Of a stretch of DNA of 64,000 nucleotides, positions 9,538 to 34,551 are shown piece by piece (position 1 is the stretch's first letter; each line of letters opens with the position of its first letter). The stretch comes from Vulcanimicrobiota bacterium (lineage in GTDB: Bacteria > Vulcanimicrobiota > Vulcanimicrobiia > Eremiobacterales > Eremiobacteraceae): NCBI GenBank assembly GCA_963805945.1, contig CAWDVP010000002.1, positions 96,001 through 160,000 on the forward strand, in the 5' to 3' direction. A model generated the notes under the pieces. That model was not told the origin of the DNA, did not search any database, and was given only the letters and a program-made list of their open reading frames with translations. Both the position numbers and the translations under genes were made by a program.

Positions 9538-10199
9538 ACCTAGGATTCAACCGCCTCGTCGTACCTATGTTCTTCGCGGTTTGCGCTTGCGTGGCGCCTA
9601 CAGCGGCCGCGCAGCAACCCAACGTTTCTCTAACCGCATTCGCCTGCTCGGGAGAGCTCAATATCTCGCCTAAAGTTTTCGTAATGAGCGGCTTCTATGG
9701 TTCTGGTGCCGAGACGAGTGCGATCGCGCAGGAAATGGCGCCTGGGGTTTTTAGCCTCACACTCGCGATGCAGCCAGGCCACTATTTCTTCGAAGTCCGC
9801 ACGACAAATTGCTTCGGAGTCGCCGGAACGGAGATTCTGCCCGGACGCATACGGCATCTTGCATTTCAGCTCGCAGACAATACCGTCCACGATGTTCATT
9901 CTAACTGTTCGCTCGCAGGGACCCTTCCTGCAGCTGGCATTGGCGTGGAACTCATGAACGTGCGAAAACCGGTGTCTTATCGGGCTGTCGTCGATGATGG
10001 AGCATATTACGCCGAGGGTATCGGCCCTGGGACGTATCATCTAGTACTTCTATTAGCCGGCGCCGATATCGACCTCGGAGTGGTCAATCTGGACGCCATA
10101 AACGGCAAGTGCGAAGCTCATATTGTGAGGGATGTGAGCCTCGATGAAGTCCGTGCTCACAGCACGCAATTCTTCGGAATTCAAACGCCAACGCCCTGA
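9534..10199 (+). CDS. Secreted hypothetical protein (prealbumin/carboxypeptidase-regulatory-like repeats)
   Basis: Signal peptide ending AAA-Q; two PGxY beta-sandwich-like motifs; ATGA overlap with upstream gene. Confidence 0.6.
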   Translation: MNLGFNRLVVPMFFAVCACVAPTAAAQQPNVSLTAFACSGELNISPKVFVMSGFYGSGAETSAIAQEMAPGVFSLTLAMQPGHYFFEVRTTNCFGVAGTEILPGRIRHLAFQLADNTVHDVHSNCSLAGTLPAAGIGVELMNVRKPVSYRAVVDDGAYYAEGIGPGTYHLVLLLAGADIDLGVVNLDAINGKCEAHIVRDVSLDEVRAHSTQFFGIQTPTP

Positions 10200-10208
10200 C
10201 TCTTGTGA

Positions 10209-11714
10209 TCATCCCGCTGGCATCGTCGGCGTGCCGGCCGCGGGCGCGCCGGTGCGCAACAGGCTGTTGCGATAGCCGTACAGCGCGTACACGACGATGC
10301 CGATGACGAACCAGACCACGTAGCGCGTCCACGTCGCCGGCTGCAGCGACGTCATCATGTACAGGCACAACCCGGCGCCGAGGATCGCGGTGAGCGGGCC
10401 GAAGGGCGCCTTATACGGACGCACCGCGTTCGGATGCGTACGGCGCAAGACGAAAACGCCGACGCACACGATGGTGAACGCCCACAACGTGCCGATGTTG
10501 ACCAGTTCGAGCAGGCTCTGAAGCGGCACGCTCGCGGCCAACAATGCGACGATCACGCCGGTGATGATGGTCATCCGAGTGGGTGTGTGGAAGCGCGGCG
10601 ACACCGCGGCGACCGCGGGCGGCAGCATGCGATCTCGCGCCATGACGTAGAAGATGCGGACCTGGCCAAGCAGCGAGGTGAGCATGACGCTGATGTTGCC
10701 CGCGATGCCGCCCCAATTGACGATATCGACGAAGAGCTTGCTCCTCGGGTGCGCAAGCGCCGCGGCTTGGCCGAGCGCGGCGTTGGAATCCATGTGCTGC
10801 CACGGCACGACGCCGACGGTGACGATCGCGATCGTCATGTAGAACAGCCCGCCGATGAGCAGCGAGCCGATGACGCCGATCGGCAGGTCGCGCTGCGGAT
10901 TCTTCGATTCTTCGGCGGCGACCGTGACCGTGTCGAAGCCGATGTAGGCGAAGAACACGAGCGCGGCGCTCGTGACGATGCTATGCGCGCCGAGCGGCAG
11001 CAGCGGTGTGTAGTTGGACGAATGGACCGCGCTCACGCAACCGATGACGAAGATGACGAGCACGAACATCTGGAAGATCACGAAGACCGTGTTCGTGCCG
11101 GCCGATTCCCTGATCCCCAGCGCCAGCAGCGCGCTCACCGCAAGGACGACGAGCGCGGCGATGACGTCGTAATGCGAGGCGAGCAGATCGAACGAGGTGG
11201 GGACGGCGAAATGAATCGGACCGAACGAGATGGGCGCGGTCGTCATGACGATGTGTGCGCTCTGCGCCCAGGCCGGCAGCACGATGCCGTGATCGCCAAG
11301 GAAGTTCTGCACGTAGCCCGAGAGCGATGCCGACACCGGCGCGGCGCTAAATCCGTATTCGAGGATGAGGTCCCAACCGATGATCCACGCGACGATCTCG
11401 CCGAGCGTGGCGTACGCGTACGTGTACGCGCTGCCGGCGACGTGCACCATCGACGCGAATTCCGCGTAACAGAGCGCGACGAAGACGCACGCGATGCCGG
11501 ACAACCCGAACGCCAGCACGACGCCGGGGCCGGAGGCCTGTGCGCCGACGCCCATCGTCGTGAAGACGCCGCCGAGCATGGTGCCAAGACCGATGGCGAT
11601 GAGCGAAGGCCAGCCGAGCGCGCGGTGAAGCTTCGGCCCTTCTTCCTCTGGCCGAACACGGTCGTGCGGCTGTATGGCGAACAGCCGCTGCACAAGGCTC
11701 TTGGGCTGCTGCAT
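10209..11714 (-). CDS. APC-family amino acid/polyamine permease
   Basis: [31 protein letters not shown]; about 12 TM. Confidence 0.92.
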
Positions 11715-11724
11715 CAGCCCGCCG

Positions 11725-13163
<1,439 letters not shown>

Positions 13164-13167
<4 letters not shown>

Positions 13168-14681
13168 TTGTCGGCGAACCAGCCGATAGGTTCGACCGCC
13201 AAGTTCACGTTGATCTGCTTCACCTCGGTGTACTGCTCGTAGCCGTAGGTGCCGAGCTCGCGGCCGGTGCCCGATTGCTTGTAGCCGCCCCACGGCGCCT
13301 CGTTGTACGTCGGATGGTAGGTGTTGATCCAGGTGATGCCCGCGCGCAGCTTCTTGATGACGCGGTGCGCCTTGGCGATGTCATTGGTGAACACCGCGCC
13401 CGCGAGGCCGTACACGGTGTCGTTGGCCATCGCGATGGCTTCCGCTTCATCTTTGAAGCGCTGCACCACCAGCACCGGACCGAAGATCTCTTCCTTGACG
13501 ATGCGCATGCCCGGCGTGGTGTTGGTGAAGATGGTAGGCTCGATGTAGTTGCCCTTCTCGAGCTCGCCCGTCAGCCGCTTGCCGCCGGTCTCGAGCTTTG
13601 CGCCTTCTTCGATTCCGGTGCGGATGTACGCCTCGACCTTCTCCTCATGCGCGCGGCTCACGAGCGGCCCCATCTCCGTCGCCGCATCGAAACCGTCGCC
13701 GACTTTGATCTTGCGCGTCCGTTCGACGAGGCGCTTCACGAACTTGTCGTGGATCGAATCCTCGACGAGCAGTCGCGAGCCGGCGGAGCACACCTGGCCG
13801 GCGTTCGCGAAGATGCCGAAGAGCGCGTAGTCGACGGCCGTCTCGAAGTCGGCGTCGGCGAACACGATGTTCGGCGACTTGCCGCCGAGCTCGAGCGAGA
13901 TCTTCTTGAGATTGTCGGCTGCCGCGTGCATGATCGAGCGCCCGGTCTTCGTGCCGCCGGTGAACGCCACTTTGTCGACGAGCGGACTTTCGGCGATCGC
14001 CGCGCCGACCACCGGCCCCGCGCCGAGCACGATGTTGACGACGCCTTTCGGGAAGCCGACCTCTTCGATGAGCATGGCGAGGCGCAGCGCGGTGAGCGGC
14101 GTCAGCTCCGACGGCTTGAGCACGCACGTGTTGCCGGCGGCGAGCGCCGGTGCGAGCTTCCACGCGGCCATGAGCAGCGGATAGTTCCACGGGATGATCT
14201 GGCCGCAGACGCCGATCGGTTCCCGCACGACCATCGACTGCGACGCCGCGGGCACGTCGAACGTCTGCCCCTGCGGCTTCGTGGCAAGACCCGCGTAATA
14301 GCGATAGCAGCCGGCTGCGTCCGCGACGTCATACTCGGTCTCGCGTAGCGGCTTGCCGTTGTTGAGCGTCTCGAGCCGCGACAGCTCGGTGGTGTGCTCC
14401 TCGAGTATGTCCGCCAGTTTGAAGAGCAGTTTGGCGCGGTCCTGAGCGGTCGAGCTGCTCCATGGTCCCTCGTCGAACGCTGCGCGCGCCGCGCGGATGG
14501 CGCGTTCCGCGTCGAGCTTCGTGCCTTCTGCCACGCGCGCGATAGGCTCGCCGTTCGACGGGTTGATGAGTTCGCGCACGCCCCCGGCCGACGCCGCGCT
14601 CCATCCGCCGTCGATGTACATGAGGCAGACGCCGTCTTTGGCCGGCAGATCCTTCAGCAGATTCTCAGTGGTCGCAAGCAT
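13164..14681 (-). CDS. Aldehyde dehydrogenase (betaine/aminobutyraldehyde type)
   Basis: PWNYP, LELGGKSP, GQVCSAGSR, EEIFGP, WGGYKQSG; AGGAG RBS. Confidence 0.92.
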
Positions 14682-14699
14682 CTCGATCTTCTCCTAATA

Positions 14700-14725
14700 T
14701 GGAGCGGTCGAATTTGTTCGACCGT
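14700..14725 (+). repeat. REP-like palindrome, family B
   Basis: TGGAG-CGGTCGAAT-TT-GTTCGACCG-T; 24/26 identical to the reverse complement of 38582-38607. Confidence 0.7.
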
Positions 14726-14728
14726 TGT

Positions 14729-16099
14729 CTAGGCGGGCACGGTGTCGCGCGCCATCGCGTCGAGCGATTCGCCCAACGACTTGACGACGTAGTCGGCCTG
14801 CTCCTCGGTGATCGTCAGCGGCGGTTCGAAACGGATGACGCGCGCGTTCACCAGCGTGCCGGAGCACAGCACGCCTCGCTCGAGCATCGCCTTGCTCAGG
14901 GCGAAGCCGGCTTCGTGGCTCACGAATTCCAGCGCCATGAGCAGGCCCTTGCCGCGCACGTCCACGACTATGTCCTCGTGCCCCTCGACCGCGTGCTTGA
15001 GGCCAGCGAGCATGCGCTCGCCCATCCACGCCGCGCGCTCGGGCAGCTTCTCCGTGATGAGCACGTAGAGCGTGGCGAGCGCGGCCGCGCACGCAAGCGG
15101 GTTGCCGCCGAACGTAGTCGTGTGCAGGAACGGGTTGTCGAACAAACGCGAGAACACCGCCTTCGTGCCCACCACCGCTCCGGCCGGCATGACGCCGCCG
15201 CCGAACGCCTTGGCCAGGCACATCAGGTCCGGCGCGACGCCGTAGTGCTCGCAGCAGAACATCTTGCCGGTCCGCCCCATGCCGGTCTGGACCTCGTCGA
15301 GGATGAGCAGCGCGCCGTATTCGTCGCACAGCTTGCGCACGCCGGGTAAGTAGTCGTCATCGGGGATGTTGACGCCGCCTTCGCCCTGGATCGGCTCGAG
15401 GATCACCGCGCCGACGTCCTCGCCGACCATCGCGAGCGTGTGCATGCGCCGGCGCAGTTCGACCAGGTCGTTGAACGGCACGTGTTCGATGTTCGGCAGC
15501 ATGGCGCCGAACGGCCGGCGGAACTCGCCTTTGGCGCTCGCGGAGAGCGCGCCATAGCTCTTGCCGTGGAAGCCCTTGGTCGCGCCGATGATCGTCTGCT
15601 TCTTGGGATCGTAGACGCGCGCGAGCTTCAACGCCGCTTCGATCGTCTCGGTGCCGCTATTGCAGAAGAACGCGTACTCGAGCTTGCCCGGCGTCACCAG
15701 CGACAGCGCCTTGGCGAGCATGCCGCGCAGCGGGTCGAGCAGGTCTTGGCTGTGGAGCGGCTGGCGGTGGAGTTGGTCGGTGACCGCTTTGACCACCACC
15801 GGGTTGCGATGGCCGACGTTGAAGATGCCGAAGCCGCCGAGGCAATCGATATACTCGCGGCCGTTGACGTCGCGATAGGCGTTCAGGCCGGCGTCCGCCC
15901 ATTCGACGGCGGCGACGGCGTGTTCGACGGACGTGGCCTTGCGATACTCGAGAAAACCCGGATTGACGTGATCGCGGAAGTTCTCGACGGTTTCGTTGGT
16001 GATCCAGGCCGCGTCGTCTTTTGTGATCTCGGGCTTTTCGATGAGCCCGAGCACGCGCGTGACGTAGGCGAGGGCTTCAGGGATGTCTTGCTTCGTAAT
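14729..16099 (-). CDS. patA: Putrescine--2-oxoglutarate aminotransferase
   Basis: HVNPGFLEYRK, IDCLGGFGIFNVGHRNP, QPLHSQDLLDPLR and PFLHTTTFGGNPLAC match PatA/YgjG; start placed at ATT 16099 behind AAGGAG. Confidence 0.9.
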   Translation of the reverse strand: MTKQDIPEALAYVTRVLGLIEKPEITKDDAAWITNETVENFRDHVNPGFLEYRKATSVEHAVAAVEWADAGLNAYRDVNGREYIDCLGGFGIFNVGHRNPVVVKAVTDQLHRQPLHSQDLLDPLRGMLAKALSLVTPGKLEYAFFCNSGTETIEAALKLARVYDPKKQTIIGATKGFHGKSYGALSASAKGEFRRPFGAMLPNIEHVPFNDLVELRRRMHTLAMVGEDVGAVILEPIQGEGGVNIPDDDYLPGVRKLCDEYGALLILDEVQTGMGRTGKMFCCEHYGVAPDLMCLAKAFGGGVMPAGAVVGTKAVFSRLFDNPFLHTTTFGGNPLACAAALATLYVLITEKLPERAAWMGERMLAGLKHAVEGHEDIVVDVRGKGLLMALEFVSHEAGFALSKAMLERGVLCSGTLVNARVIRFEPPLTITEEQADYVVKSLGESLDAMARDTVPA

Positions 16100-16114
16100 T
16101 TTCTGCTACTCCTT

Positions 16115-16140
16115 GGGCCGATCTAAAGATCGGCCCCTAC
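16115..16140 (-). repeat. REP-like palindrome, family A
   Basis: GTAG-GGGCCGATCT-TT-AGATCGGCCC. Confidence 0.75.
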
Positions 16141-16142
16141 AT

Positions 16143-17429
16143 TTAGGTTGAGAGAACTGATTCGCAGCTCGCCGTGAAGCGCGCCAGGCCTTCCTTCAGA
16201 TCCGCGTCGCTGATCACCAGCGGTACGAGCACGCGCAGGACGCAGCTCTTCGAGCCGGCCGACATGAGCAGTAGCCCGCGCTCGCGCGCCGCCGCGATGA
16301 TGCGCTTCGCGATCGGCTCCGCCCCCGGCTCGTCGATGAACTCCATGCCCATCATCGCGCCGAGCCCCCGCACGTCGCCGACTCGTTTCGGATAACGCGT
16401 GGCGAGCTCGCGCATCGCAGCCTCGAGGCGCGTGCCGATCGCAGCGGCGCGCTGCACCAGCTTCTCGTCCTCGAAGATGTCGAGCGTCGCGAGCGCCGCC
16501 GCGCACGCGAGCGGATTGCCCGCATACGTGCCGCCTAGCCCGCCCGGGTCAGGCGCGTCCATGATCTCGGCGCGCCCGATGACGGCGGCCAGCGGCAGCC
16601 CGGCCGCGATGCTCTTGGCGACGCACATCAGGTCCGGTTCCACACCGGCGTGCTCGATCGCGAACATCTTCCCGGTCCGGCCGAAACCCGATTGGATCTC
16701 ATCGGCGACGAGCACGATGCCGTGGCGCGTCGCGATCTCGCGCAACGCTTGCAAGAACTCGACCGGCGCCGGGATGAACCCGCCTTCGCCGAGCACCGGC
16801 TCGATGATGATCGCGGCGACGCGCGCCGGCTCAACCTCTGATTCGAACAAGTCGTCGAGCGCGCGCAGCGCGCGCTCCGTCGTCCAGCCCTGATACTCGT
16901 ATGGGAACGGCGCGTGATAGATCTCGCTGCAGAACGGGCCGAAGCGCTGCTTGTACGGCTCGTTCTTGCCGGTCATCGAGAGCGCGAGCAGCGTCCGCCC
17001 ATGATAGCCGTGATGGAACGCCACCACCGAAGCGCGACCGGTATGCGCGCGCGCGATCTTGACCGCGTTCTCGGTGGCTTCGGCGCCGGTGTTGAGCAGC
17101 AGCGACTTCTTGCGGCTCGGTCCCGGCGCGATGCGATTGAGCCGCTTCGCCAATCTGACGTACGAGTCGTACATCGCGACCTGGAAGCACACGTGAGTGA
17201 AACGATCCAGCTGTTCGCGGACGGCTGCTTGGACGCGGGGGTGGCAGTGGCCGACGTTGAGCACGCCGATGCCGCCGACGAAATCGATGTATTCCTTGCC
17301 GTCGGCATCCCACAGCCTCACCCCCGACGCGCGGTCGACGAAGAGCTGGTGCGCGTTGCCGACGCCGCGCGCGACCTCGGTCTTGCGCAGGTCGAGCAGC
17401 GCAGCGGAGGGCGACGGTGCTATGGCCAC
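16143..17429 (-). CDS. gabT: 4-aminobutyrate aminotransferase
   Basis: DFVGGIGVLNVGH, TGAEATENAVKIAR, DEIQSGFGRTG, GGLGGTYAGNP. Confidence 0.92.
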   Translation of the reverse strand: MAIAPSPSAALLDLRKTEVARGVGNAHQLFVDRASGVRLWDADGKEYIDFVGGIGVLNVGHCHPRVQAAVREQLDRFTHVCFQVAMYDSYVRLAKRLNRIAPGPSRKKSLLLNTGAEATENAVKIARAHTGRASVVAFHHGYHGRTLLALSMTGKNEPYKQRFGPFCSEIYHAPFPYEYQGWTTERALRALDDLFESEVEPARVAAIIIEPVLGEGGFIPAPVEFLQALREIATRHGIVLVADEIQSGFGRTGKMFAIEHAGVEPDLMCVAKSIAAGLPLAAVIGRAEIMDAPDPGGLGGTYAGNPLACAAALATLDIFEDEKLVQRAAAIGTRLEAAMRELATRYPKRVGDVRGLGAMMGMEFIDEPGAEPIAKRIIAAARERGLLLMSAGSKSCVLRVLVPLVISDADLKEGLARFTASCESVLST

Positions 17430-17574
17430 GTCGTAGCGTCCTTTCTTGACAAAGCTGCGCTTCTAGTGTATCAGCGCCCGAGAGGCGAAAGCCACGTGGC
17501 GAAAGCACAAAATAAGGCCTATCTTTGGTGTTTTCGTGCCAAGAATGCCCCGTGGCGCTGTCGAAGGCGCGCGG

Positions 17575-19204
17575 ATGAACGTCCGTGAGGCTCTCGGCGT
17601 CGAGTCGCTGCACGCGGCCAAGGTGGTCGCCGGCGCGAGCGGGCTCGAGCGCGAGGTGCGCTGGGCGCACGTCATCGACATGCCCGATCCCGCGCCCTGG
17701 GTTCGGCCAGGCCAACTGCTGCTCACCACGGGCTTCGCCTGGCCGCAGGGCGAGCGCGAGCAGCGCGAGCAGATCGGCGCGCTCACCGAGCGCGGCCTCG
17801 CCGCGATGGCGCTTGCGGTGCCGCGCTACGTCGATCATTTCACCGCTGCCGCCATCGCGGAGGCCGACCTGCGCGGCCTGCCGTTGCTCGAGATCCCGTT
17901 CGAAGTGCCGTTCGCGCAGATCACGGAGGAACTGCATCGCGCCATTCTGGCCGAGCAGTACCGCGTCATCGAGCGCTCGGAAGCGATCCATCGCGAGCTG
18001 ACGCGTGCCGCGACGACAGGGACGGACCTGGGTGATCTTGCGCGCACGCTCGGCGGGCTCATCGGGCGCGCGATCACCTTCGAGGATCCGAACCGGCAAA
18101 CTGCTCGCCTCGTATGAGGCCGGCTCGCACGGCGACGCCATCAGGCGCGAGACGTTGGAGCATCAGCAGTCCCCTGCCCATATGCTCGATGCGCTCGAGT
18201 CGAGCGGCCTGCTCGCGCGTATCCGCGCGAGTTCGGGACCGCTTCGCGTGCCCTCGACGCCTGAGCTCGGCCTCGTGAGCGCGCGCGTCGTGTGTCCGAT
18301 CCGCATCGGCACGGAACTCGTGGGCTTGGTCTGGATCATCGAGGGAGAAAGCGCGCTCTCAGAGCTGGACAATCGCGCCGCGGAGCAGGCCGCGCTCATC
18401 GCCGCGCTGCACATCGCCCATCAGCGCGAACTCGCGGGCATGGAATCGCGCTTGGGCTACGCGTCGTTCCTTTCGCTCTTGGAGGCGGAGACCGACGACG
18501 CGCAGGCGGTCGAGCGAGCCCGGTTGCTGGGATTCGACCCGGACGGACGGCATCGCGTGGGCATCGCGGTGATCCCCGAGCCGCTGCCGTTGAGCCGCGA
18601 CGCCTTCTTGCGGCGCGAGCGCGTTGGCGCCATGCTGCGTGCCCGCCTCGAAGCGGCCGGCGCTCGCCCGCTTCTCACCGCACAGCTCAATCACGTCGCT
18701 TTTCTCGTGCCCGACGGCATCCCGCTCGCCGGCGTCGTGCACGGCCTCGGTGAGGAAGGCGTCGGCGTCGTCCTCGGGCGCGCCTATCGCGGCACGCACG
18801 GGGCGCGGCGCAGCTATCGCGAGGCGCAGTCGCTGCTCAACTATCGCAAAGACGCGGCGATCCTCACCTTTGAGGAGGCGCTCGTGCCGCGCGTGCTGAT
18901 GGGCGATGCGAGCGCCCGCGATTCTTTCATCGACGAGCTTTTCGGTTCGCTCAAGGCGCGCAAGGGCGGCGCGACGTTGCGTGAGGCCTTGCTCGCGCTC
19001 GCGCGGACGGGTTTCAACTTCAAGGAGACCGCGGTCCAGCTCACGATCCACCCGAACACGCTGCGCTATCGTCTCACCAACGCCGCAGAGACGACGCATC
19101 TCGACCTCGAAGATCCTGAGGTTCGCTTCCGGCTACAACTCGCGGTTCGGCTTTTGGAGTTTCCTGATAAGAATGAGAAGGAAAATTGTGGCGCGCAGAC
19201 ATAG
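17575..19204 (+). CDS. PucR-family transcriptional regulator (frameshift near 18093)
   Basis: PucR N-domain (VRWAHVID.PD..PW..GQLLLTTG), GAF-like middle, C-terminal IHPNTLRYRL HTH; one extra C splits EDPN-GKLL. Confidence 0.88.
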
Positions 19205-19272
19205 TCGAGGGGTCAGTTTCTTAGTAAACTCTTAAGCAACACCGTGCCGTGACTTCGGTCAGGAGTTTTCGC

Positions 19273-22200
19273 ATGCCGTTTCAAAGCAGAGCGGTCGCAT
19301 TCGTAGCGGCCGTTTGTCTTTTCGCCATGGCATCGCCGGGCTTCACCGGGACCACCGGCGGTGTTCAGGGCAGGGCGCTCGAGGCGACGACGAACGCGCC
19401 GATCGCCGGGGCGTCGATCACCGCGACATCTCCTTCGCAGGTGGCGACCGTCGTCACCGACAGCGACGGGGCACTTCAGCTTCCTCTCGCTCGCGCCTGA
19501 CACGTATACCGTGACCGCCTCGAAGACCGGCTACAGTACCGTCAGCGTGCCGGGCGTCACCGTGATCTCCGATCAGGTCCGCACGGTCGACATCGTGCTG
19601 CAGACAGGCGGTGAAGACGATCGGCAGCGTGACCGTGACCGGCGGCCAATCGCTCGTGCGCCCCGGGACGACGAGTCGACGTCTACTCGATCAACGCGGC
19701 CGGCCAAAAGGCGGCCCAGGCGCTCGGCGGCGCGGGCAGTCTGAATCAGGCATATGGCGCGGTCGCGAGTCGCCCGGCGTCGTGTACACGCAAGGGCCAG
19801 CAAGGCTGGAATCAGAGCGTCTATATCCGCGGCGGCGACAACGACCAGGTCGCGTACGAACTCGACGGCATCCCGGTGATGCGCGTCTCCGATAGCGCTC
19901 CGGGGTCTCGACGCTAACCGAATCTCGGCCAAGCAGAGGTCCAGGTCTACACGGGCGGCACGCCCGCCTCGGCGGAGGCCTCCGGCCTCGCCGGCTACAT
20001 CAACCAGGTCATCCGGACCGGCACGTATCCCGGGCTTCGGCGAGATCTCCTCGGGCATCGGCAATCCCGACGCTGTCAACAAGATGGCGACTCGCAGTAC
20101 GGCGGCGCCTCGCCGGACCGCCGTTTCAGCTACTACATCGGCTTCGGCCAACTCGGCGCAAGACTTCCGCTACGGCAACCAGACAACGCTGTGGGCAATC
20201 CGCTCTTCTTCTATCCGCTTGGTCGATCCGTCGCGCCGCTCAAGGCACGTCTACGACGGCAACACCAACGGCGGCGCCAATCCGGCGATCTTCGCGCCGG
20301 GCGCAGAGCTACGCCAGCACGCACACCACCGATCGAGAAATATCGGCAACTTCCACTACGCGCCTGCCGCACGGCGACCGGGTCTGCAAGACGACGTGCA
20401 GCTCGCGTACGTCTACAGCAACGTGCTGCAGAAGTTCTACAGCTCGACAACGATCTCGGCCTCAAAGCGCCTCGGTCACGGTCTCGCTGCCTACTGGCGA
20501 CCGCGCCGATGACATTTCTCGACATCCCCGTCTACACCGGCCCGATGTACCAGGCGCCCGATCCCACGCAGCGTCGACGACCATGCTGTTCCCCAATACG
20601 GGGACGAGCCGCCCTGTAACGCGCCGATCCCCTACACGGCAGCGCGAGGGCTCGCAGAACGGTATGGCGCTCATCAAGCTCCAGTACCAGCACAACATCA
20701 ACTCCAAGTCGTACTTCCGCATACTCGGCGCCTCGAACTACAATTGGTGGTTCATCACCGGGCCGGTCAGCGCAGACCTCACGTATGGCGCGCAGCTGCC
20801 CGATTACGAGGTGATCGGCCACAACTGGAGCGGCACCGCGGTCTATGCGCGCCAGCTAAGCGACAAGAATCTGATCAACGCCACCGCCTCGTATATGACC
20901 GGCAAACTGCAGACCTATTCGATGGGTTTCTTCGACGGTTTCATGACCAACCTGGTGGGCAACAACGGCCTGTGCTATGACGGCTCGACCGGTAACCAGT
21001 GTGAGCTGCTACGACACCTCGAACCCGAACTCGCGCGGCACCGCCTCGAACCTGACGCCAGCCATGCCGCCGCCCGGCTCGCCGGCCGCTCTCGCCGGCG
21101 CGCAATGGCTCATAACGGAGAACGGCCAGAACGCGCAGGTCGACAACGTGGTCCCGAATTTCTAGCGGCGTGTCGCTGACCGACCAGTGGCGGCCGAACG
21201 ACAAGACTCGTTGTGAGCGCCGGCTTGCGCATCGAGAGCTTCCAATACACGCTGCAAGACCTCTGCAGAACTATCCAGCGCGCGCCTTCTGGTTCAAGGC
21301 CTACAACAACGAGTTCTGCTTCGGCCCTGGTCAGCCGGCTGCGGTGTCGCGGGCTTCGATCCGGTAGCCGGCGTCTTCAACCCTTGTCCGGCGGGCACGA
21401 GCGCGACCAACCTCGTCAATTATACCGGCGGCAAGGTGAACGACACGGCCTGGCAGCCGCGCATCGCGTTCACCGAACAGATGGGCAGGGACACGGTCAT
21501 GCGGGGCTCCTACGGGCGCTACGCCCGGCCGGCGCCTACCTCGTATCTGGAGTTCAACACCGTCCAGCAGAACCTGCCCGCCTTCATCTCGTCGTTCCTG
21601 AGCTTCGGCTACAACTCGCCCTTCCACGAAACGCATGCGGACGTCGCGAATAACTACGATATCTCGATCGAGCATCATTTCCCCGGCACCGATATGGCGG
21701 TCAAGTTCACACCGTACCTGCGCAACACGCAGAACCAGATCCAGTATCTCTCGCTCAACGCGCAAGGCGTGGTGGACGGCCTCAACGTCGGGCAGCAGAC
21801 CTCACAAGGCTTCGAGTTCGCGTTCACCAAGGGCAACTTCGCCAGGGACGGCATCGCGCTGCAGTGGGCCGTCACCACCACGAACAGCAAGATCAAGTAC
21901 GGCGACTTCCCCAACGGACGCAACCTCGTCGACCTGCTCAACGATAACGTCCAGCTGTACAACTCGTACACGTCGGCGTGCGCCACCGGCAGCGCGTCGC
22001 TGTGCGGTATCAGCGGCAACACCCACGCCATGCCGTTCTTCAACGCCGGCGCCATCGCGAATCCATATTACAACCTCGCGCCGCAGCCGCTGTTCGACCG
22101 CAACGGCTCGTATACGACCTACGACCAGATTCCGGCGCCGTTCAATAACGCGCTGGGCTTCGCCGTGCCGTTCCAGACGTCGCTTGTCGTGAACTACAAG

Positions 22201-22707
22201 CACGGCCCGTTCGCCGTCACGCCCTCGCTCACATACAGCTCGGGCGCGAGCTACGGTTCGCCGCTGGTGTGGCCGGGCTACGATCCTGCGTCATGCACCG
22301 GTGTCATCAGCGGCACGACCGCCGATCCGCAGACCTGCTCGAACTACATCTTCATCCCGGACAAGTACACCAATCAATTCGACAACCTCGGCGCGTTCAA
22401 AGAGCCGAGCCGGCTGACGGGCAACCTCTCGTTCTCGTACGACGTGAACCCGCACGTCAGCGCGACGCTCACCTTCGCCAATCTCGTCGACGCGTGCTAT
22501 CAGCGCGGCCATCCGTGGGATAGCTCAACGACGTGTATCTACGCACAGCTGCCGTCCAATCTGCTCGCGCCCGCAGGCAACTTCTCGAACAGCCCGCCGA
22601 TTCAGCTCGCATATCCGTACGGCAGTTGGTACAACAACATCGAGATCGGGCAAGAAGGCCAGAAGGCGCCGCCGCAGGCCGTACTCGAAATCCACATCAA
22701 GATCTGA
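19273..22707 (+). CDS. TonB-dependent receptor-like outer-membrane protein with N-terminal carboxypeptidase-regulatory domain (several frameshifts 19470-21400)
   Basis: AGGAG RBS, signal peptide, FSFLSLAPDTYTV, plug-like IRGGDNDQVAYELDGIPV, WQPRIAF and YGRYA beta-barrel segments, C-terminal beta strand. Confidence 0.8.
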
Positions 22708-22717
22708 CGCCGCACCC

Positions 22718-24316
22718 ATGGCCCGCGCCGAACTGACCGGCCTGCTGCGCCGGATCCACGCCGCCTATCGTGAGGCGCAGGCGGCGGGTCTGCCGGTGGA
22801 CGTGGTGTTCGAACGCGATGCGCAGCGCCTCTCGCGGCGGCGCTTCTTGCGCCAGGCCGCTGGAGCCGGCGCTGCGCTCGCCGCCGGCGCTGTGTGGCCG
22901 CTGCGGGCGGCCGACAAGACCTCACCGCGCATCGCGATCGTCGGCGGCGGACTCGCCGGCGTGGTCTGCGCATACCGGCTCATGCAGGCGGGGTTGCCGA
23001 GCACCATCTACGAGGCGGGCGGCGGGCTCGGCGGCCGCACCTGGACGCTGCGCGGTTTCTTCGACGAGGGGCAGATCGCCGAGAACGGCGGCGAGTTCAT
23101 CTCGAGCGAGCACGTCGCGACGCGCGCGCTCGCGCGCGAGCTCGATCTTCCACTCGACGACCTCCGCGCGTGGGACAAACAGGCGCATCCCGGCGCCGAA
23201 GACGTCTACTACATGCACGGCCAGCGTTACCCGATCGCGGAGATGCTGCGCGATTACGCATCGGTCTATCCGGCGTTGGAAAAGGCGAACGCGGCCGCCG
23301 GCACCACGACCTATGACCACCACACGCCGGCGGGCTTCGCGCTCGATCATATGTCGGCGCGGGAGTGGATCGTGCGCAACGTGCCGGGCGGCATCCAGTC
23401 GAAGATCGGCTGGCTGCTCGACATCGATACGACGACCGAGAACGGCGGCGACTCCACCCAGCAGAACGCGCTGACGCTCACCAACATGCTCGTCTTCATG
23501 CCGGACTACTACAAGACCAGCCAGTTCTATCTGGTGGGGACGGACGAACGCTATCGCGTGCACGGGGGCAACGATCAGATCGTCGGCCGCATGGCGGCGA
23601 AGCTGCCGCCGAGCGCGCAGCTCGACACGCGCCTGCAGGCGCTGAGCCGCCGCAGCGACGGTTCGTATGCATGCACGTTTTCGGCGCAGCAGCACACATT
23701 TGAGGTGGTCGCCGATCACGTCGTGCTCGCGCTGCCGTTCAAGACGCTGCGTGACTGCGAATTGTCTCAGGCCGGATTCTCCTCTGTGAAGATGAAGGCC
23801 ATCACGGAGCTGCCGATGGGCACGAACACGAAGATGCACGTGCAGCTCAAGCAGCGCGTCTGGTTCGCGCACAGCTCGAACGGCGCGACGTACAGCGACA
23901 CCGGCTACCAGCAGACCTGGGAGGACACGCGCGATCAGCCGGGGACCGCCGGCGTGCTCGTGAACTACACAGGCGGCATCGTCGGCGCGTCATGGAACAC
24001 GCCGTCGTTTGCGCCGGCGCCGCCGGCCTTGGTCCACGCGTTTCTGTCGCAGCTCGAAGCGCTGTATCCCGGCGTCGGCGCACAGTGGAACGGCAAAGCG
24101 TTCGTCGACAACTGGACGAAAGACCGCTGGCACCGCGGTTCGTACTCGTATTGGGGCCTCGGGAACTGCACTTCGTTCGTCGGCATCGAACAGGTACCGC
24201 AGGGCAACGTGCACTTCTGCGGCGAGCACACCTCGCGCGATTTCCAAGGCTTCATGAACGGCGCGGTGGAGACGGGCGAGCAGGCAGCGCGGGAGATCAT
24301 CCACGATGCCGTTTGA
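22718..24316 (+). CDS. Tat-exported flavin monoamine oxidase family protein
   Basis: SRRRFLR twin-arginine motif plus hydrophobic helix; GGGLAG, EA..GLGGR, FCGEHT and GFMNGAVETG motifs. Confidence 0.88.
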   Translation: MARAELTGLLRRIHAAYREAQAAGLPVDVVFERDAQRLSRRRFLRQAAGAGAALAAGAVWPLRAADKTSPRIAIVGGGLAGVVCAYRLMQAGLPSTIYEAGGGLGGRTWTLRGFFDEGQIAENGGEFISSEHVATRALARELDLPLDDLRAWDKQAHPGAEDVYYMHGQRYPIAEMLRDYASVYPALEKANAAAGTTTYDHHTPAGFALDHMSAREWIVRNVPGGIQSKIGWLLDIDTTTENGGDSTQQNALTLTNMLVFMPDYYKTSQFYLVGTDERYRVHGGNDQIVGRMAAKLPPSAQLDTRLQALSRRSDGSYACTFSAQQHTFEVVADHVVLALPFKTLRDCELSQAGFSSVKMKAITELPMGTNTKMHVQLKQRVWFAHSSNGATYSDTGYQQTWEDTRDQPGTAGVLVNYTGGIVGASWNTPSFAPAPPALVHAFLSQLEALYPGVGAQWNGKAFVDNWTKDRWHRGSYSYWGLGNCTSFVGIEQVPQGNVHFCGEHTSRDFQGFMNGAVETGEQAAREIIHDAV

Positions 24317-25724
24317 GATGCCGGCGCTCTCGACCGGGTCGGGGCTGCGCCGCAACTATCTCGGCTTCTGGCATATCGCGGCGCAGTCGGTGGCGAACAT
24401 CGCGCCGTCTGCGACGCCCGCGCTCGTCGTCGCGCTCATCTTCGGCCTCACCGGCAACGGCTCGTGGCTCGCCTATGCGATCGCGACGCTCACGCTGCTG
24501 CTCGTCGCGCTCAACGTGAACCAGTTCGCGCGGCGTTCGGCTTCGCCGGGCTCGCTCTACACGTTCGTGGCGCAAGGGCTCGGCCCGATGTGGGGCGTCA
24601 TCTCGGGCTGGTCGATGGTGATCGCGTATCTCATCATCGGTGGATCCGTGCTGGCCGGGCTCGCGAACTACGCCACGGTGATCGCCCACGCGGTGATCGG
24701 CCCGAACTTCGACGCGTCGCTCACCATCGTCATGATGACGCTGGCGGCGGTCGCGGCATGGTACGTCGCGTACCGCGACGTCAAGCTTTCGACGCAGTTC
24801 ATGCTCGCCATCGAGTTCCTGTCGATCACGCTAATCATGCTGCTCGCGTTCATCTATCTGGTGAAACGCGGCACGCTTATGGACCCGGAGCAGCTCACGC
24901 TCTCAGGCGTCACGGCGGGCAGCTTGGGCAAAGCGCTGGTGCTCGCGATCTTCAGCTATGTCGGCTTCGAGAGCGCGACCGCGCTCGGGCATGAGGCCAA
25001 ATACCCGCTGCACTCGATCCCCCGTTCGGTGCTGTTCACCGTCATCGCTGTCGGCGCGTACTTCGTCTTCACGTCGTACATCCTGGTGATGGCGTTTCAC
25101 GGGCAGACGCCGCCGCTCGACCAGTCCAACGCGCCCTTGAGCGTGCTGGCCGGCCTCGCGGGCATCCCGTTCTTCGGATTGCTCATCGCGATCGGCGTCG
25201 CCATTGGCTTCTTCGCCTGCGCGCTCGCCTGCATCACCGCCGGTTCGCGCGTGCTCTTCGCCATGTCGCGGCACGGGCTGCTGCACTCGGCGATGGCCGA
25301 CGCCCACGAGACCCACGCGACGCCGCACATCGCGGTTACCATCGCCGCCATCGTCGTGCTCGCCGCGCCGCTGGCGCTCTTCGGGGCGCACTTCGCGCTG
25401 CTCGACATCTTCGGCGATCTGGGCACGCTCGGCACGCTGAGCGTCCTGTTCTCCTACGTGCTGGTGAGCGTCGCTGCGCCCGTCTATCTGAAGAAGCGCG
25501 GCGAGCTGACGGCCTACGCCGTCGTGATCGCCGCACTTGCGGTCGTCGCGATGGTCGTCGCCATCATCGGCAACGTCTACCCGGTGCCGCCGCCGCCGCA
25601 GAACCTCATCCCCTATGTGTTCATCGTGCTGCTCGGGATCGGCGTCGCGCGCTTCCTCTATCTGCGGGCGCGCCGCCCTGCCATGATCGAAGAGATCGAG
25701 GCCGACCTACTCGCGGAGGGCTGA
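24306..25724 (+). CDS. APC-family amino acid/amine permease
   Basis: QSVANIAPS, SPGSLYTF, SYVGFESA; about 12 TM. Confidence 0.9.
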   Translation: MPFEMPALSTGSGLRRNYLGFWHIAAQSVANIAPSATPALVVALIFGLTGNGSWLAYAIATLTLLLVALNVNQFARRSASPGSLYTFVAQGLGPMWGVISGWSMVIAYLIIGGSVLAGLANYATVIAHAVIGPNFDASLTIVMMTLAAVAAWYVAYRDVKLSTQFMLAIEFLSITLIMLLAFIYLVKRGTLMDPEQLTLSGVTAGSLGKALVLAIFSYVGFESATALGHEAKYPLHSIPRSVLFTVIAVGAYFVFTSYILVMAFHGQTPPLDQSNAPLSVLAGLAGIPFFGLLIAIGVAIGFFACALACITAGSRVLFAMSRHGLLHSAMADAHETHATPHIAVTIAAIVVLAAPLALFGAHFALLDIFGDLGTLGTLSVLFSYVLVSVAAPVYLKKRGELTAYAVVIAALAVVAMVVAIIGNVYPVPPPPQNLIPYVFIVLLGIGVARFLYLRARRPAMIEEIEADLLAEG

Positions 25725-25970
25725 TTGCTGCCGCTCGAAGTACTGAACACGATCGCGACTTGTGAATTCCGCAACATGATCCGCCAAGGTCTTACCGATC
25801 GGGCGCTCTTCATCGAGCAGTTCGGCATTCATGGGCGAGGCGTAGTTTCGAGTCCCTTACAATGAGGGGTCACAGGTTCGAGTGCATCGACGATCCTCAG
25901 AGCAACATGCTAGGCGAGAAACAAAAGTTCCACATGGTTGGGGCGTGGAGCTCTTGTTAGTGTTGGACGC

Positions 25971-27098
25971 TCATGGGAGGCCGAAGGCCTTCGTATACGA
26001 CACCAATTTGTCGTGACGGAAAGTTACGGTGAACGCATCCATTAGAGCATCCTTATAATGCCAGGTCGTCTGATGATCTAGTATCGCCTTTTCGGCAAAT
26101 TCATTAGGGTATCCAAGTCGCCATGCCACTTCGTCACGTGACATCCCGAGCGTGATGCGTCCGTATCCGACATTGTTCGGCATCGGAGGTGGCGACCCGG
26201 TACTAATCGTCCCGTCGATTTGCCAATCTGCAAGCTGGATCGATGGGCAGGGCCTCATGCCCCCCTCAATACTTGACCCGCCCTCGCTAGCTGCGCCGAC
26301 CGAAGGCAAGTCGACAATGAACCGCACCGGGTCATTTGCGAAAAAATGCGGTGCTGCATCATTTCCCCAATGCGTTGTCGCTCCGGTCCACAACTCTGCC
26401 ACCCGTTCTCGATCGCGTTCGACCGCCCTCACTCGGACCGGCGTCGTAGCGTAATAGGCCTTGAACCGTGCCGGCGCGCACTCGATCGAAATGCCGCCAT
26501 ACCCAAAGACGCTTTTACCAACGAAACGGCTTCGGAGACTGGCTATTGCCGCATCGTTGTTGCTCTCATCTGGCCACCATATCAGAATCGTCTTAAGCAC
26601 TTCTTGATTACCTAACTCCAACGCCCCCCCGTCTTCGGTCCTGCCGAAGTCTTTGGCAGCGTGTAATTGCACGTCATACATGCCCGGCGGGCCAGGAGGC
26701 CGGGGGAAAGTGACTTCCATCCGAAACTCCTTGGGGCGCTGATCCGGGGGCGCTCCCAAACCTATCAGAGGTACCATCTCAGGAGTCGAGATCGTAGCGA
26801 CGAGCGGATGGGCTCGGGATCCTGGTTTATCGTGTGGGAAAGCTGTGAAAGAGAGCCTTGTTGGGTTAATGGAATAGTTCTTGCCCACGCTGGAGGCGTG
26901 TAGTTCCAGCCCGCCAGCCCCGGTCCTGAAGTCGATTGTTACGTCTTGTGTGGCTGGGGCACTCGTTTGCGCTTGAACGGTTTGGAGATTGGAAGTCGCA
27001 ACGACGCTGGGCCGCGCCCCACACGCCAGAACGGCCAGCAAGAAAACACCCCCAACGCAGACCAATACCATCGCGCCGTATCTCTTACCTTCGGACAT
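25971..27098 (-). CDS. Putative lipoprotein with SmpA/OmlA-like C-terminal motif
   Basis: Lipobox-like VLAC; LGMSRDEVAWRLGYP...WHY...VTF..DKL. Confidence 0.6.
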   Translation of the reverse strand: MSEGKRYGAMVLVCVGGVFLLAVLACGARPSVVATSNLQTVQAQTSAPATQDVTIDFRTGAGGLELHASSVGKNYSINPTRLSFTAFPHDKPGSRAHPLVATISTPEMVPLIGLGAPPDQRPKEFRMEVTFPRPPGPPGMYDVQLHAAKDFGRTEDGGALELGNQEVLKTILIWWPDESNNDAAIASLRSRFVGKSVFGYGGISIECAPARFKAYYATTPVRVRAVERDRERVAELWTGATTHWGNDAAPHFFANDPVRFIVDLPSVGAASEGGSSIEGGMRPCPSIQLADWQIDGTISTGSPPPMPNNVGYGRITLGMSRDEVAWRLGYPNEFAEKAILDHQTTWHYKDALMDAFTVTFRHDKLVSYTKAFGLP

Positions 27099-27132
27099 TG
27101 CCGTCTACTTGTAGACCAAACGACCCGTAGTC

Positions 27133-28758
27133 CTAGGGAAGATTTGGGTCGTTGAACTGTATCTTGGGCTCGTAGGGACTCCACACGTCGCTCGTCACCG
27201 TTTGGGGATCCTTACACAGAGGTGTTGGTGGCCCCCACGTTATGGTGTGCGTTGCGGACCCAGTCCACCTGGGGTAGGTTTGTTTGTAGACTCGATACGA
27301 TTTTACGTCGCTCCATGTAAACGTCCGATAAGTCTCTGGTCTACCGTGTAGGAGACATTTGCCAGTCGTGTCCTTGTACGTGTAGTCTGCGCAGTACCCG
27401 AGAGCATCCAAGGTGCATGGCAGCGGTGGGATGGGTTCCGCAAAGGCGCCAGCTTTGAGGGCTGCCGACGTGGATACCATGTCGATTCCATCCCAGGATT
27501 CATAGGGACCCAATCCCGGAATACCACTGATATAAGACGCCACGCAACACCCAGATGGGTAGGGCTGCGGACCGCCATAGTTCGTCGAAGGGTCGATCGG
27601 ATAATGCCCCGTGCAGAGGGTGGTCCCCGGAACGCAATCGGTTTCCCAATGGCCGTAAGCCGTTTGCATCCAATGGATCGCCGTGCCACCAGATGGGTTA
27701 ACTCCAAAATACGAGCCGTCGAGGTTGTAGCCTACGACATACTGCTCCGAAGACTGAGCAAGCGTGGTTACTCGACTTATCGAGCAGTTGGTACATGGAG
27801 TGTTCTCTCCCATGCCGGCGTCGTAACCTGGAGTAGAGCCGAACGGCGACGGATAAAACATCCAAGCCGCATTTTGAGGCGTAAATATCTGGCCCGCGCA
27901 GAATTGGTACTCGGGCACGCATGAGGGCGGAACAATGCCGATCTCCGTGAATGTCATCAGGCTATCCCAGGTTATGCCGGAAACGATTACCATGTCCGTG
28001 CCACAACTATAGTAGACGTTGGAGTTTGTCAAATGAGAGGTCAGGTTTCCGCCAGGACTCTGCGCTGCGTATGGTTGAATCGTCCCACTTGCGTTGAACT
28101 GCAACCCACCTTCGAACAAGGCCTGCGATCCACTGTTATTGACGCTGTTATTCGTTATCTCCATGTATAGATTGCCCTGATCGCCAGACGCAAAGTAGTA
28201 GCTTCCGCACTGTACGTTGACGAATGAGAAACCTGCGGTTGCTGCGCATTGTGATACCTGTCGGACGTAGGGTCCCCCCGTTCCTGGATCGGGCGGCGAG
28301 CAGGCGCTAGAGTAGTTTTGTGGCCTAATAGTAGCGGGCCGCCCAACACTTAATGGCTGCCGTCCACCAATCACTGGTACTGGTCGCGAAATGTCGTTCG
28401 GCGGCGTTTCCGCCGTCAGATGCATGTATCGCAGGATTGCCGGATTATTACTGAGCAGCCGGCCCGACGGAAACACATACACAAAATCGCCTCGTTGATT
28501 CGCGGGCATATATCCCATTATCTGGCGCGCCAGTTCCCGGTCGGCTCCCATGACGCCCGGGCCTATGTACGCGTCATAGTCGGAAGGGCTTAGCGCCATC
28601 CCCCGAGCGGCTGCAAAGACGTCGGGTATTTCGCGGCGAGAACCGCTTGCCTGGATGCCCCCAGAGGGCAGAGCGCCACCTGCGTGGCTGCAAGCAGACA
28701 ACGCGACAACTAGGAAAAAAGACTGCGTAAGAATCGCTAAACGCTTCATACGGTCCAT
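27133..28758 (-). CDS. Cys-rich putative lipoprotein of unknown function
   Basis: Lipobox LSAC; 541-aa ORF with many Cys/Gly/Tyr; atypical codon usage. Confidence 0.7.
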   Translation of the reverse strand: MDRMKRLAILTQSFFLVVALSACSHAGGALPSGGIQASGSRREIPDVFAAARGMALSPSDYDAYIGPGVMGADRELARQIMGYMPANQRGDFVYVFPSGRLLSNNPAILRYMHLTAETPPNDISRPVPVIGGRQPLSVGRPATIRPQNYSSACSPPDPGTGGPYVRQVSQCAATAGFSFVNVQCGSYYFASGDQGNLYMEITNNSVNNSGSQALFEGGLQFNASGTIQPYAAQSPGGNLTSHLTNSNVYYSCGTDMVIVSGITWDSLMTFTEIGIVPPSCVPEYQFCAGQIFTPQNAAWMFYPSPFGSTPGYDAGMGENTPCTNCSISRVTTLAQSSEQYVVGYNLDGSYFGVNPSGGTAIHWMQTAYGHWETDCVPGTTLCTGHYPIDPSTNYGGPQPYPSGCCVASYISGIPGLGPYESWDGIDMVSTSAALKAGAFAEPIPPLPCTLDALGYCADYTYKDTTGKCLLHGRPETYRTFTWSDVKSYRVYKQTYPRWTGSATHTITWGPPTPLCKDPQTVTSDVWSPYEPKIQFNDPNLP

Positions 28759-28996
28759 CCCTCGGCGACATCGGTGTCAACGTCTGGTAAGCTGGTCATG
28801 CGAGGCGTTCGTTTCACGTACCCCAGGCCCTCCCAGCTTTGGTCTGAGCGGACGACGCGTCCCATCCGCCCCGTGCATAAGGCCGAACAGTGTCCGAACC
28901 TGTGACCGCGATGATGGCGCTCAATCTTCTGTGGCGCGCCGATCGGTACCGCTAACCATTTCCATATCAGAGACATTAGACGATGCCGTATGGGTT

Positions 28997-29069
28997 TGGG
29001 CGGAGAGGGGCTCGAACCCCCGGCCCCCTCCTTGTAAGGGAGATGCTCTACCAGCTGAGCTACCCGCCC
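28997..29069 (-). tRNA. tRNA-Val(TAC)
   Basis: GGGCGGGTAGCTCAGCTGGTAGAGC...CTTACAA...GGTTCGAGCC...CCGCCCA cloverleaf; CCA not encoded. Confidence 0.96.
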
Positions 29070-29116
29070 GCGGCGCGCTTGCGATCAAGCGCGCTGTATC
29101 TTCTGCCAGCCCGCGG

Positions 29117-30049: not shown

Positions 30050-30139
30050 GACTACCTCCAAGAGATGCGAGGCTCCGGACGTCCACCGGAGTTCGACGCG
30101 TGTGCTTCTTATGGAAACGCGGCAACCCCTTGATGCGAA

Positions 30140-30170
30140 GACCGCGCAGCTGCGTTGCAGCCGCGCGGTC
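30140..30170 (-). terminator. GC-rich hairpin just 3' of the displaced tRNA-Glu fragment
   Basis: GACCGCGC.GCTGC-loop-GCAGC.GCGCGGTC inverted repeat; weak U-tract. Confidence 0.45.
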
Positions 30171-30175
30171 TGTGG

Positions 30176-30222
30176 TGGTACCCTTCAGGGATTTCGAATC
30201 CCTGTCGCCACCTTAAAAGGGC
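30176..30222 (-). repeat. Degenerate copy of tRNA-Glu 3' half with CCA (att-like)
   Basis: 30179-30222 matches 30981-31024 at 38/44 positions in direct orientation. Confidence 0.85.
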
Positions 30223-30285
30223 TCGGCGGCCTTGTGGTTAGGACGTTCCAGCGGCCCAAGGTGGGGTTTGGGTAAGTTCCATGAT

Positions 30286-30816: not shown

Positions 30817-30980
30817 TGGATAGCATTCCCTCGCGATTGGGTAAGAGTCTCTCCCGACTTTCGCCCCACCGACCCCACCTCTTTCGCGGTCAATGAGCCT
30901 CAAAGGCGGACAATGGCGGACAGAAAAAAGCTGGGGCCGGGCGTCAGTGAAAACGCGCCGACCCTTTTGCGGCAAGGTTT

Positions 30981-31053
30981 TACCCCCAAGGGAATTCGAA
31001 TCCCTGTCGCCGCCTTGAAAGGGCGGTGTCCTAGGCCTCTAGACGATGGGGGC
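30981..31053 (-). tRNA. tRNA-Glu(TTC)
   Basis: GCCCCCATCGTCTAGAGGCCTAGGAC...CTTTCAA...GATTCGAATTCCCTTGGGGGTA. Confidence 0.96.

Positions 31054-32783: not shown

Positions 32784-34551
<1,768 letters not shown>

Follow-up and report, generated by a model that had tools for sequence, protein, structure and literature searches.

Does a locus that sets a TonB-dependent transporter (TBDR) and an exported flavin amine oxidase back to back with genes for putrescine and 4-aminobutyrate (GABA) catabolism encode one system, and on what substrate would such a system act? The locus in question occupies positions 10209–25724 of a window (the whole stretch of 64,000 nucleotides that was analysed, G000:C2:96001-160000, with a G+C content of about 66%) from the 2.3-Mb genome, referred to as G000, of a soil bacterium in the uncultured phylum Eremiobacterota. 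It consists of nine genes in two divergent arms, with gabT, patA, two aldehyde dehydrogenase (ALDH) genes and an APC-family permease gene on the minus strand, and pucR, the TBDR gene, the amine oxidase gene and a second APC permease gene on the plus strand. This order and the gene coordinates had been put forward in a first-pass annotation made from the sequence alone, and open reading frames (ORFs), Pfam and NCBIfam agree with it for all nine genes. Its recurrence in two families of the phylum puts the arrangement far beyond chance, and we consider it somewhat probable that it represents a conserved Eremiobacterota locus for the uptake and catabolism of an amine, with a di- or polyamine as the most likely candidate. 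Gene identities are supported at family level only; substrate, transport, catalysis and regulation are what we infer.

Conservation of the locus was followed in sampled genomes and loci (labelled G and L respectively), with f1 denoting the window's own family and f2 the neighbouring family in Eremiobacterota. A first sample comprised 12 loci, chosen by the best receptor match per genome (G010 and G013 being unpublished genomes), and in ten of them (G001, G002, G003, G005, G006, G009, G012, G013, G023 and G031) the receptor–oxidase pair diverges from gabT-patA-ALDH1; the locus of G015 is cut by a contig end. The pair is also adjacent in eight f2 genomes, one of which (G031) is already counted above, and all seven new loci carry gabT-patA-ALDH1, six of the seven without pucR. 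The second and fairest sample consists of 20 further loci picked by oxidase match alone, at about one per f2 genus. The receptor directly adjoins the oxidase in 17 of these 20 loci (once in reversed order); in one more it is 4.6 kb distant, and two loci lack it. Both patA and ALDH1 are found in all 15 loci with enough flanking sequence, the other five being cut by contig ends, and gabT in 13 of the 15. The synteny search that the first-pass annotation had proposed therefore finds receptor and oxidase co-conserved with patA. The TBDR–oxidase pair and the gabT-patA-ALDH arm occur together in at least 30 genomes from two Eremiobacterota families.

The receptors that accompany the oxidase also belong together phylogenetically. 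In a tree of 42 rows, from which the window's broken copy, that of L017 (unpublished) and three more that were partial or split were left out, the 33 oxidase-adjacent TBDRs and the one at 4.6 kb form one clade with an SH-aLRT of 100, and the eight nearest receptor paralogues from the same genomes fall outside this linked clade and have unrelated genes as neighbours. The oxidase family is present in 131 of 301 sampled genomes of the phylum (20 of 21 in f1, 106 of 207 in f2, and 4 in other families), and four of the five oxidase-lacking genomes that were checked hold only patA paralogues of 42–45% identity. As relatives are not independent, these counts show co-inheritance and not statistical proof; functional coupling of the receptor, the oxidase and patA/gabT/ALDH is well supported by this co-inheritance.

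The persistence of one receptor clade beside this oxidase family across two families would be explained by an obligate physical pairing of receptor and oxidase, in which the periplasmic N-terminal extension of the receptor would dock the oxidase, so that polyamine would be oxidised on emerging from the transporter, or the transporter would carry the folded, Tat-delivered flavoenzyme to the cell surface as Oar of Myxococcus xanthus does PopC. Such a pair would make this the first amine-dedicated TonB-dependent system, with polyamines among the chief carbon and nitrogen sources of much of the phylum, a picture that in all its parts is considered improbable.

Several further arrangements of the pair were observed. 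The oxidase of L075 (G100) is flanked on both sides by full-length receptors, both of which fall in the linked clade, and that of L087 (G220) has receptor-like sequence on both sides, as partial matches of 31% and 42% identity that were excluded from the tree. Open frames of 1745 and 1784 aa run through the oxidase in G239 and G197 respectively; that of G239 looks like chance read-through of a 200-nt spacer and not like a fusion. A pattern scan of genome contigs with the oxidase returned only 7 loci, four of which (L025, L026, L027 and L028) carry labels other than Eremiobacterota (Proteobacteria or Acidiferrales) and an oxidase of 55% identity. Two of the four hold the whole locus and two, on short or cut contigs, hold part of it, with patA and ALDH1 about 81–82% identical where present. 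These labels may be placeholders or binning errors, and no conclusion on transfer is drawn from them.

The receptor gene itself (19274–22707, plus strand) had been taken as intact in the first-pass annotation, and in the assembly it is broken. It is spread over three stop-to-stop frames, is open only over its last 495 codons, and as assembled does not provide an uninterrupted frame of ~1,150–1,200 codons. Nucleotide alignment with five same-genus orthologues reveals 34 indel events, mostly insertions of 1–2 nt, of which 28 are not multiples of three; 27 of these frameshifting indels lie between 19461 and 21332, one lies at the alignment edge, and none is found after 21350. Intact orthologues are 1148–1180 aa long, those of the same genus being single ORFs of 1,163–1,180 aa. 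Among the fragments of the window's gene, only CarboxypepD_reg (PF13620) scores (1.9e-10 at 19310–19741), with no Plug or barrel match, whilst the three orthologues that were scanned contain CarboxypepD_reg (3/3, 6.5e-16 to 2.4e-18), Plug (PF07715; 3/3, just over cut-off) and TonB_dep_Rec (PF00593; 2/3). The window's gene is called a TBDR because its intact orthologues carry these TBDR domains. The regulator gene pucR is also frameshifted as assembled, which had been overlooked.

These lesions could mean that receptor and regulator are true pseudogenes, with the right arm decaying and the cytoplasmic arm persisting, since the assembled TBDR gene has about 27 frameshifts and pucR one, and the indels are packed into 3.2 kb between flanking genes that are open. 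A gene that had drifted for long enough to gather 27 indels should show stops or lost residues, and this favours consensus error instead. When the TBDR gene is read in the frame of its orthologues, with X at the breaks, it contains 0 stops in 1,172 codons, and residues that are invariant among the orthologues are kept at 331 of 403 positions in the broken part and at 260 of 316 in the intact part (82% in both). There is likewise no excess of substitutions in the broken part; the ratio of broken to intact nucleotide identity is 0.96–1.01 for the window against each orthologue and 0.90–1.04 for pairs of intact orthologues. Also against decay, frameshifts are found elsewhere in the window, where the gene for the glycolytic enzyme enolase (32787–34195, minus strand) is split near 33560, so that residues 1–214 and 207–461 of the G005 protein align in two frames, and a third APC permease gene (~31350–32832, plus strand) is split near 32100, with Pfam positions 12–243 and 257–424 in different frames. 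The assembly has 8 contigs yet only 82% completeness, and split locus genes are also found in other few-contig genomes, namely the oxidase of G002 (L012), patA of G030 (L037), and patA and the TBDR gene of G137 (L078), which suggests that these suffer from the same assembly problem. Weak support comes from public reads, from one soil metagenome run with 0.06 of the sampled words; relatives there are mostly 88–95% identical and are not the source strain, and related soil contigs, at a depth below 5 and 88–95% identity, are free of six of the indels. Decay is accordingly given a low probability, and the TBDR and pucR frameshifts most probably arose as errors in the consensus of a long-read metagenome-assembled genome, which makes it very likely that the organism itself has an intact system.

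The domain architecture of the orthologues places the receptor in the Oar subclass. Like Oar of M. xanthus, they have a PF13620 extension, a plug and a large barrel in ~1,150–1,200 aa (PMC6434023), a likeness of domain architecture, and Oar exports a protease, the 50.8-kDa PopC (PMC11658791). The combination of Oar architecture with the export of a 50.8-kDa protein leaves room for transport in the outward direction, in which the receptor would secrete the Tat-delivered oxidase (~50 kDa, ~465 residues after the signal) and amines would be oxidised outside the cell to yield ammonium, aldehyde and H2O2. The documented cargo of Oar is periplasmic, and the receptor and oxidase genes are here separated by 10 nt from stop to start and are adjacent in the same 17 of the 20 independently sampled loci. 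On the other hand, TBDR matches number between 1 and 15 per genome and the eight nearest paralogues stand in varied contexts, which fits the usual role in import, the oxidase occurs in two loci that lack the receptor, and a lipobox in some members of the oxidase family would anchor the enzyme. Secretion of the oxidase is therefore regarded as very unlikely, and import by the receptor is preferred. Matches in G000 to TonB_C (eight), ExbD (three over cut-off) and TatC (one) indicate that the Ton and Tat machinery needed is present.

The oxidase gene (22718–24316, plus strand) encodes 532 aa, of which PF01593 (1e-53) spans residues 79–528; PF13450 is also matched, and the glycines of the GxGxxG motif (G76, G78 and G81) are invariant in the 33 sequences of the family alignment. 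Inspection of the translation identifies a twin-arginine translocation (Tat) motif, S39-R-R-R-F-L44, followed by an Ala-rich h-region, AAGAGAALAAGAV. The twin-arginine signal that had been proposed from the sequence is borne out by this SRRRFL motif (aa 39–44), the hydrophobic stretch and the TatC gene of G000. The signal region, S/T-R-x-x-F-L with its h-region, is conserved in the 33 family members, 21 of which have RR and several a lipobox Cys, and f2 oxidases carry TRRAFL, KRRSFV or SRRAFI. The Tat motif is preceded by an extension of ~35 residues that is predicted to be helical (MARTxLTxLLRRIHAA...) and is conserved in most family members, down to ~45% identity.

What the exported enzyme acts on was approached through its predicted fold and its family alignment. 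The structural model (pLDDT 84.8, pTM 0.85) matches a bacterial monoamine oxidase (MAO) solved with putrescine (8p84, 9h5p), rat MAO-A, putrescine oxidase 2yg3 and cyclohexylamine oxidases with TM scores of 0.70–0.74, and the fold scores of MAO-A and cyclohexylamine oxidase equal those of putrescine oxidase. L-amino acid oxidases (LAAOs) rank from 30 down among the fold matches. In the profile alignment, the Arg of the LAAO 'GAMRIP' motif, which we take to be a carboxylate-binding residue, aligns with the Leu/Phe of 'GGE[LF]IS' in the family. The LAAO ranking and the replaced arginine make an amine a more likely substrate than an amino acid, as judged from model and sequence. An active-site lysine and an aromatic cage in front of the flavin have roles in MAO-B and in polyamine oxidase, and K372 and Y476 are invariant in the family with Phe or Tyr at position 512 in 33/33, the equivalence to the MAO residues being judged by eye.

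The same comparisons bear on the possibility that the enzyme works in the periplasm as an oxidase or deaminase of basic L-amino acids (Lys, Orn or Arg), yielding keto acids that would enter the routes of aminovalerate, guanidinobutyrate or GABA. Among profile matches in the Protein Data Bank (PDB), reconstructed L-amino acid oxidases score highest (157 bits, in two pieces), and the APC permeases are similar, under cut-offs, to carriers of cationic amino acids. By fold, LAAOs stand behind MAO, putrescine oxidase and the cyclohexylamine oxidases, the 'GAMRIP' Arg is replaced, and there is no decarboxylase, amidase or guanidinobutyrase gene in the locus, all of which makes an amino acid oxidase highly unlikely.

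A more serious alternative accepts that the locus is coupled and holds that the oxidase acts on something other than a polyamine. Candidates would include amines that are aromatic or N-methylated, aminobutanoates derived from alkaloids (as for 4-methylaminobutanoate oxidase, MABO) and amino alcohols, and the oxidase would then be linked to patA/gabT through nitrogen or GABA-shunt regulation in common and the same downstream aldehyde and GABA steps. This alternative is consistent with the best single-sequence PDB match, which is MABO (7rt0, 4e-24), with fold scores of MAO-A/B and cyclohexylamine oxidases like that of putrescine oxidase, with the names of the ESM Atlas clusters of the family, which are of the generic amine-oxidase kind only, and with the use of nicotine-derived amines by the periplasmic NicA2 and Pnao. 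Gene content points the other way. The oxidase is paired with PatA (the window copy of which is above cut-off) and an aminoaldehyde-type ALDH in 15/15 assessable loci, for which a diamine or aminoaldehyde product is the simplest account, and the locus contains no genes of aromatic or alkaloid catabolism. A non-polyamine substrate is thus considered unlikely, and a di- or polyamine is favoured.

The oxidase tree, which has no outgroup, joins three clades (receptor-linked oxidases of f1, unlinked ones of f2 and receptor-linked ones of f2) at a single node, and the idea that the receptor is paired with two different oxidase lineages was dropped, as an unrooted tree cannot decide it. Many f2 genomes encode a second oxidase of the same family, 43–47% identical to that of the window and not adjacent to a receptor (L042-L044, L065-L074); in three of these loci that were inspected, it lies near a multicopper oxidase in two and a peroxidase in one.

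The cytoplasmic arm begins with gabT (16143–17429, minus strand), a 4-aminobutyrate-2-oxoglutarate transaminase gene that scores 547.4 bits against TIGR00700 (equivalog cut-off 506.65), followed by patA (14729–16054, minus strand; PF00202), a putrescine aminotransferase gene with 678.3 bits against NF008570 (equivalog cut-off 612). The product of the next gene, ALDH1 (13164–14681, minus strand; PF00171, 3e-188), resembles betaine-aldehyde and aminoaldehyde dehydrogenases and falls below the curated cut-offs, narrowly for betaine-aldehyde dehydrogenase (BADH; TIGR01804, 658.6 against 668.6 bits) and by more for aminobutyraldehyde dehydrogenase (NF010000, 515.7 against 615). It is 64–84% identical in related loci where it was seen, and its presumed role is the conversion of 4-aminobutanal to GABA. 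ALDH2 (ORF 11725–13293, minus strand; PF00171, 8e-141) probably starts near 13140, where the alignment of its G005 orthologue begins, and is found in part of the related loci only. A succinate-semialdehyde dehydrogenase (SSADH) had been proposed for this arm, and ALDH2 stays well under the equivalog cut-off for this enzyme (TIGR01780, 304 bits of the 646 needed); nor does it reach any other NCBIfam equivalog, with 436 against 650 bits for lactaldehyde dehydrogenase and 297 against 521 for NF006916. Its presumed action on succinate semialdehyde is assigned from context.

Each arm ends in a permease gene. APC1 (10209–11714, minus strand; PF13520 at 6.5e-46, with an AA_permease_C tail, PF13906) has BcaP and cationic amino acid transporters as its best NCBIfam models, all under cut-off, and its orthologues are 56–74% identical in related loci. 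APC2 (24306–25724, plus strand; PF13520, 3.3e-25), the start of which overlaps the oxidase stop by 11 nt, has orthologues of 54–79% identity in f1 loci and of 35–42% in f2 loci. None of the oxidase, the receptor and the two permeases reaches an NCBIfam equivalog.

Between the arms lies the gene for the regulator (17575–19201, plus strand), with one frameshift at ~18094. All three domains of the PucR family are present, spread over two frames, with PF07905 (3e-33) on 17536–18117 and PF17853 (GGDEF_2) and PF13556 (HTH_30) on 18005–19204, and orthologues, which are single ORFs of 540–563 aa, align with frame 1 up to 18093 and with frame 2 from 18095. The PucR N-domain, the GGDEF-like domain and the C-terminal HTH_30 uphold the identification as a pucR-like regulator that the first-pass annotation had offered. 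The 145-bp divergent spacer between gabT and pucR (17430–17574) retains AGTGTA, CCACGT-like and ACAAAAT blocks in an alignment of 12 orthologous intergenic regions, and these conserved blocks are candidates for the operator of the regulator or for promoters. A sigma-70 scan of the spacer gave nothing above chance.

These parts suggest a pathway in the following terms. The Oar-subclass transporter would carry the substrate across the outer membrane, and the FAD-containing amine oxidase, exported in folded form by Tat, would oxidise it in the periplasm, with O2 as electron acceptor or possibly a cytochrome as in NicA2/Pnao. Putrescine, aminoaldehyde or GABA-like products and ammonium would then cross the inner membrane via the two APC permeases, and in the cytoplasm PatA, the aminoaldehyde dehydrogenase, GabT and the second ALDH would convert them to succinate. 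The PucR-type regulator encoded between the arms may control the whole set, as GabR does for gabTDP in Corynebacterium. Since the exported oxidase and the cytoplasmic PatA are both kept, the simplest explanation would be that the oxidase takes substrates beyond the reach of PatA, for instance a polyamine that is longer or substituted, and releases a diamine or aminoaldehyde. The first-pass annotation had likewise proposed that the right arm would import longer or conjugated polyamines, oxidise them in the periplasm and pass putrescine or GABA inward, a reading that the present results support in part.

A number of observations weigh against an amine locus of this kind. As assembled, neither the receptor gene nor the regulator gene is functional, and polyamines are small enough for porins, which makes the need for a TonB-dependent transporter not obvious. 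The co-occurrence has exceptions: the best receptor match of G010, a fragmentary genome, has no oxidase or gabT nearby, L081 and L091 hold the oxidase with patA/gabT and no receptor, G033 has no oxidase and keeps a patA orthologue of 74% identity alone in another context, and some related loci lack ALDH2, APC2 or pucR (pucR in several f2 genera). The Tat motif has a single Arg in 12 of the 33 family members. By profile against the PDB, the oxidase is about equidistant from LAAO ancestors (157 bits), MAO-A (140), MABO (131), putrescine oxidase (121) and NicA2 (111), with MAO-B likewise about equally far by sequence and NicA2 matching the family profile at 103–111 bits, and maize polyamine oxidase aligns only in part (residues 332–530, 90 bits). 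The oxidase reaches no NCBIfam equivalog, ALDH1 misses the BADH cut-off by 10 bits, and no SSADH model comes close to ALDH2.

Known systems resemble the locus in part. Polyamines are known to be used through an aminotransferase, by direct oxidation or through spermidine dehydrogenase (PMC9397018), and the aminotransferase pathway for putrescine (PatA/YgjG or SpuC, PatD/KauB, GabT and GabD) is matched by patA and gabT above their cut-offs with an aminoaldehyde-type ALDH alongside. In contrast to that pathway, the divergent locus adds a TonB-dependent transporter and an exported flavin oxidase, has a PucR-type regulator, and has in ALDH2 no SSADH equivalog. Direct oxidation and the spermidine dehydrogenase SpdH resemble the proposed pathway in that polyamines are cleaved or deaminated oxidatively before aminoaldehyde dehydrogenase and GabT act (PMC9397018), whereas SpdH is an enzyme with FAD and heme b and with its own heme-binding fold (PMC12564564). 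Both routes are described without an outer-membrane receptor, the words 'outer membrane' occurring 0 times in the available text of PMC9397018.

Closer to the exported part of the system, NicA2 and Pnao of Pseudomonas putida S16 belong to the PF01593 family and have predicted N-terminal signals for periplasmic export (PMC9396064). They differ in being encoded in an operon with the cytochrome c acceptor CycN and in acting on nicotine metabolites, whereas the locus has no cytochrome gene and has polyamine/GABA partners. GabR of Corynebacterium glutamicum is, by family and context, similar to the regulator in that a PucR-family protein is encoded beside gabT genes (PMC7652997), whereas pucR is missing from the locus in several f2 genera. 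The grouping of a receptor, a periplasmic enzyme, an inner-membrane carrier, cytoplasmic enzymes and a regulator is that of TonB-dependent nutrient loci such as the Bacteroides glycan systems, with the difference that the substrate class here would be amines.

Full-text literature searches, with subscription journals outside their coverage, found no TonB-coupled polyamine or amine system, in agreement with the first-pass annotation, which had known of no characterised TonB-coupled polyamine system. A count of the words polyamine, putrescine, spermidine and amine gave 0 for each in the available text of a 2024 review of the substrates of TonB-dependent transporters, and a search for Eremiobacterota together with putrescine found nothing relevant.

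Around the locus, a scan of 9900–26200 for promoter and terminator consensus sequences gave 3 promoter-like matches (2.1 expected) and 8 terminator-like ones (9.8 expected), and does not inform on the operon ends. Beyond APC2, the interval 25900–31000 has a lower G+C content (0.56–0.61) and no match of at least 55% identity to the syntenic region of G005; it contains two ORFs with no Pfam match (25971–27098 and 27133–28758) and a gene for a Kelch-repeat protein (29117–30061).

The logic of a TonB-dependent nutrient locus is known, and its application to amines is probably undescribed. The oxidase, as a soluble enzyme of ~465 residues, would be open to direct expression and assay. If the proposed pathway is true, amines would join the substrate range of TonB-dependent transporters, and beside nicotine catabolism there would be another physiological setting for Tat-exported periplasmic members of the flavin amine oxidase family. 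Eremiobacterota abound in acidic soils and peat, and to our knowledge almost nothing is known of their nutrition; for this phylum, the locus provides a concrete and testable nutrient hypothesis.

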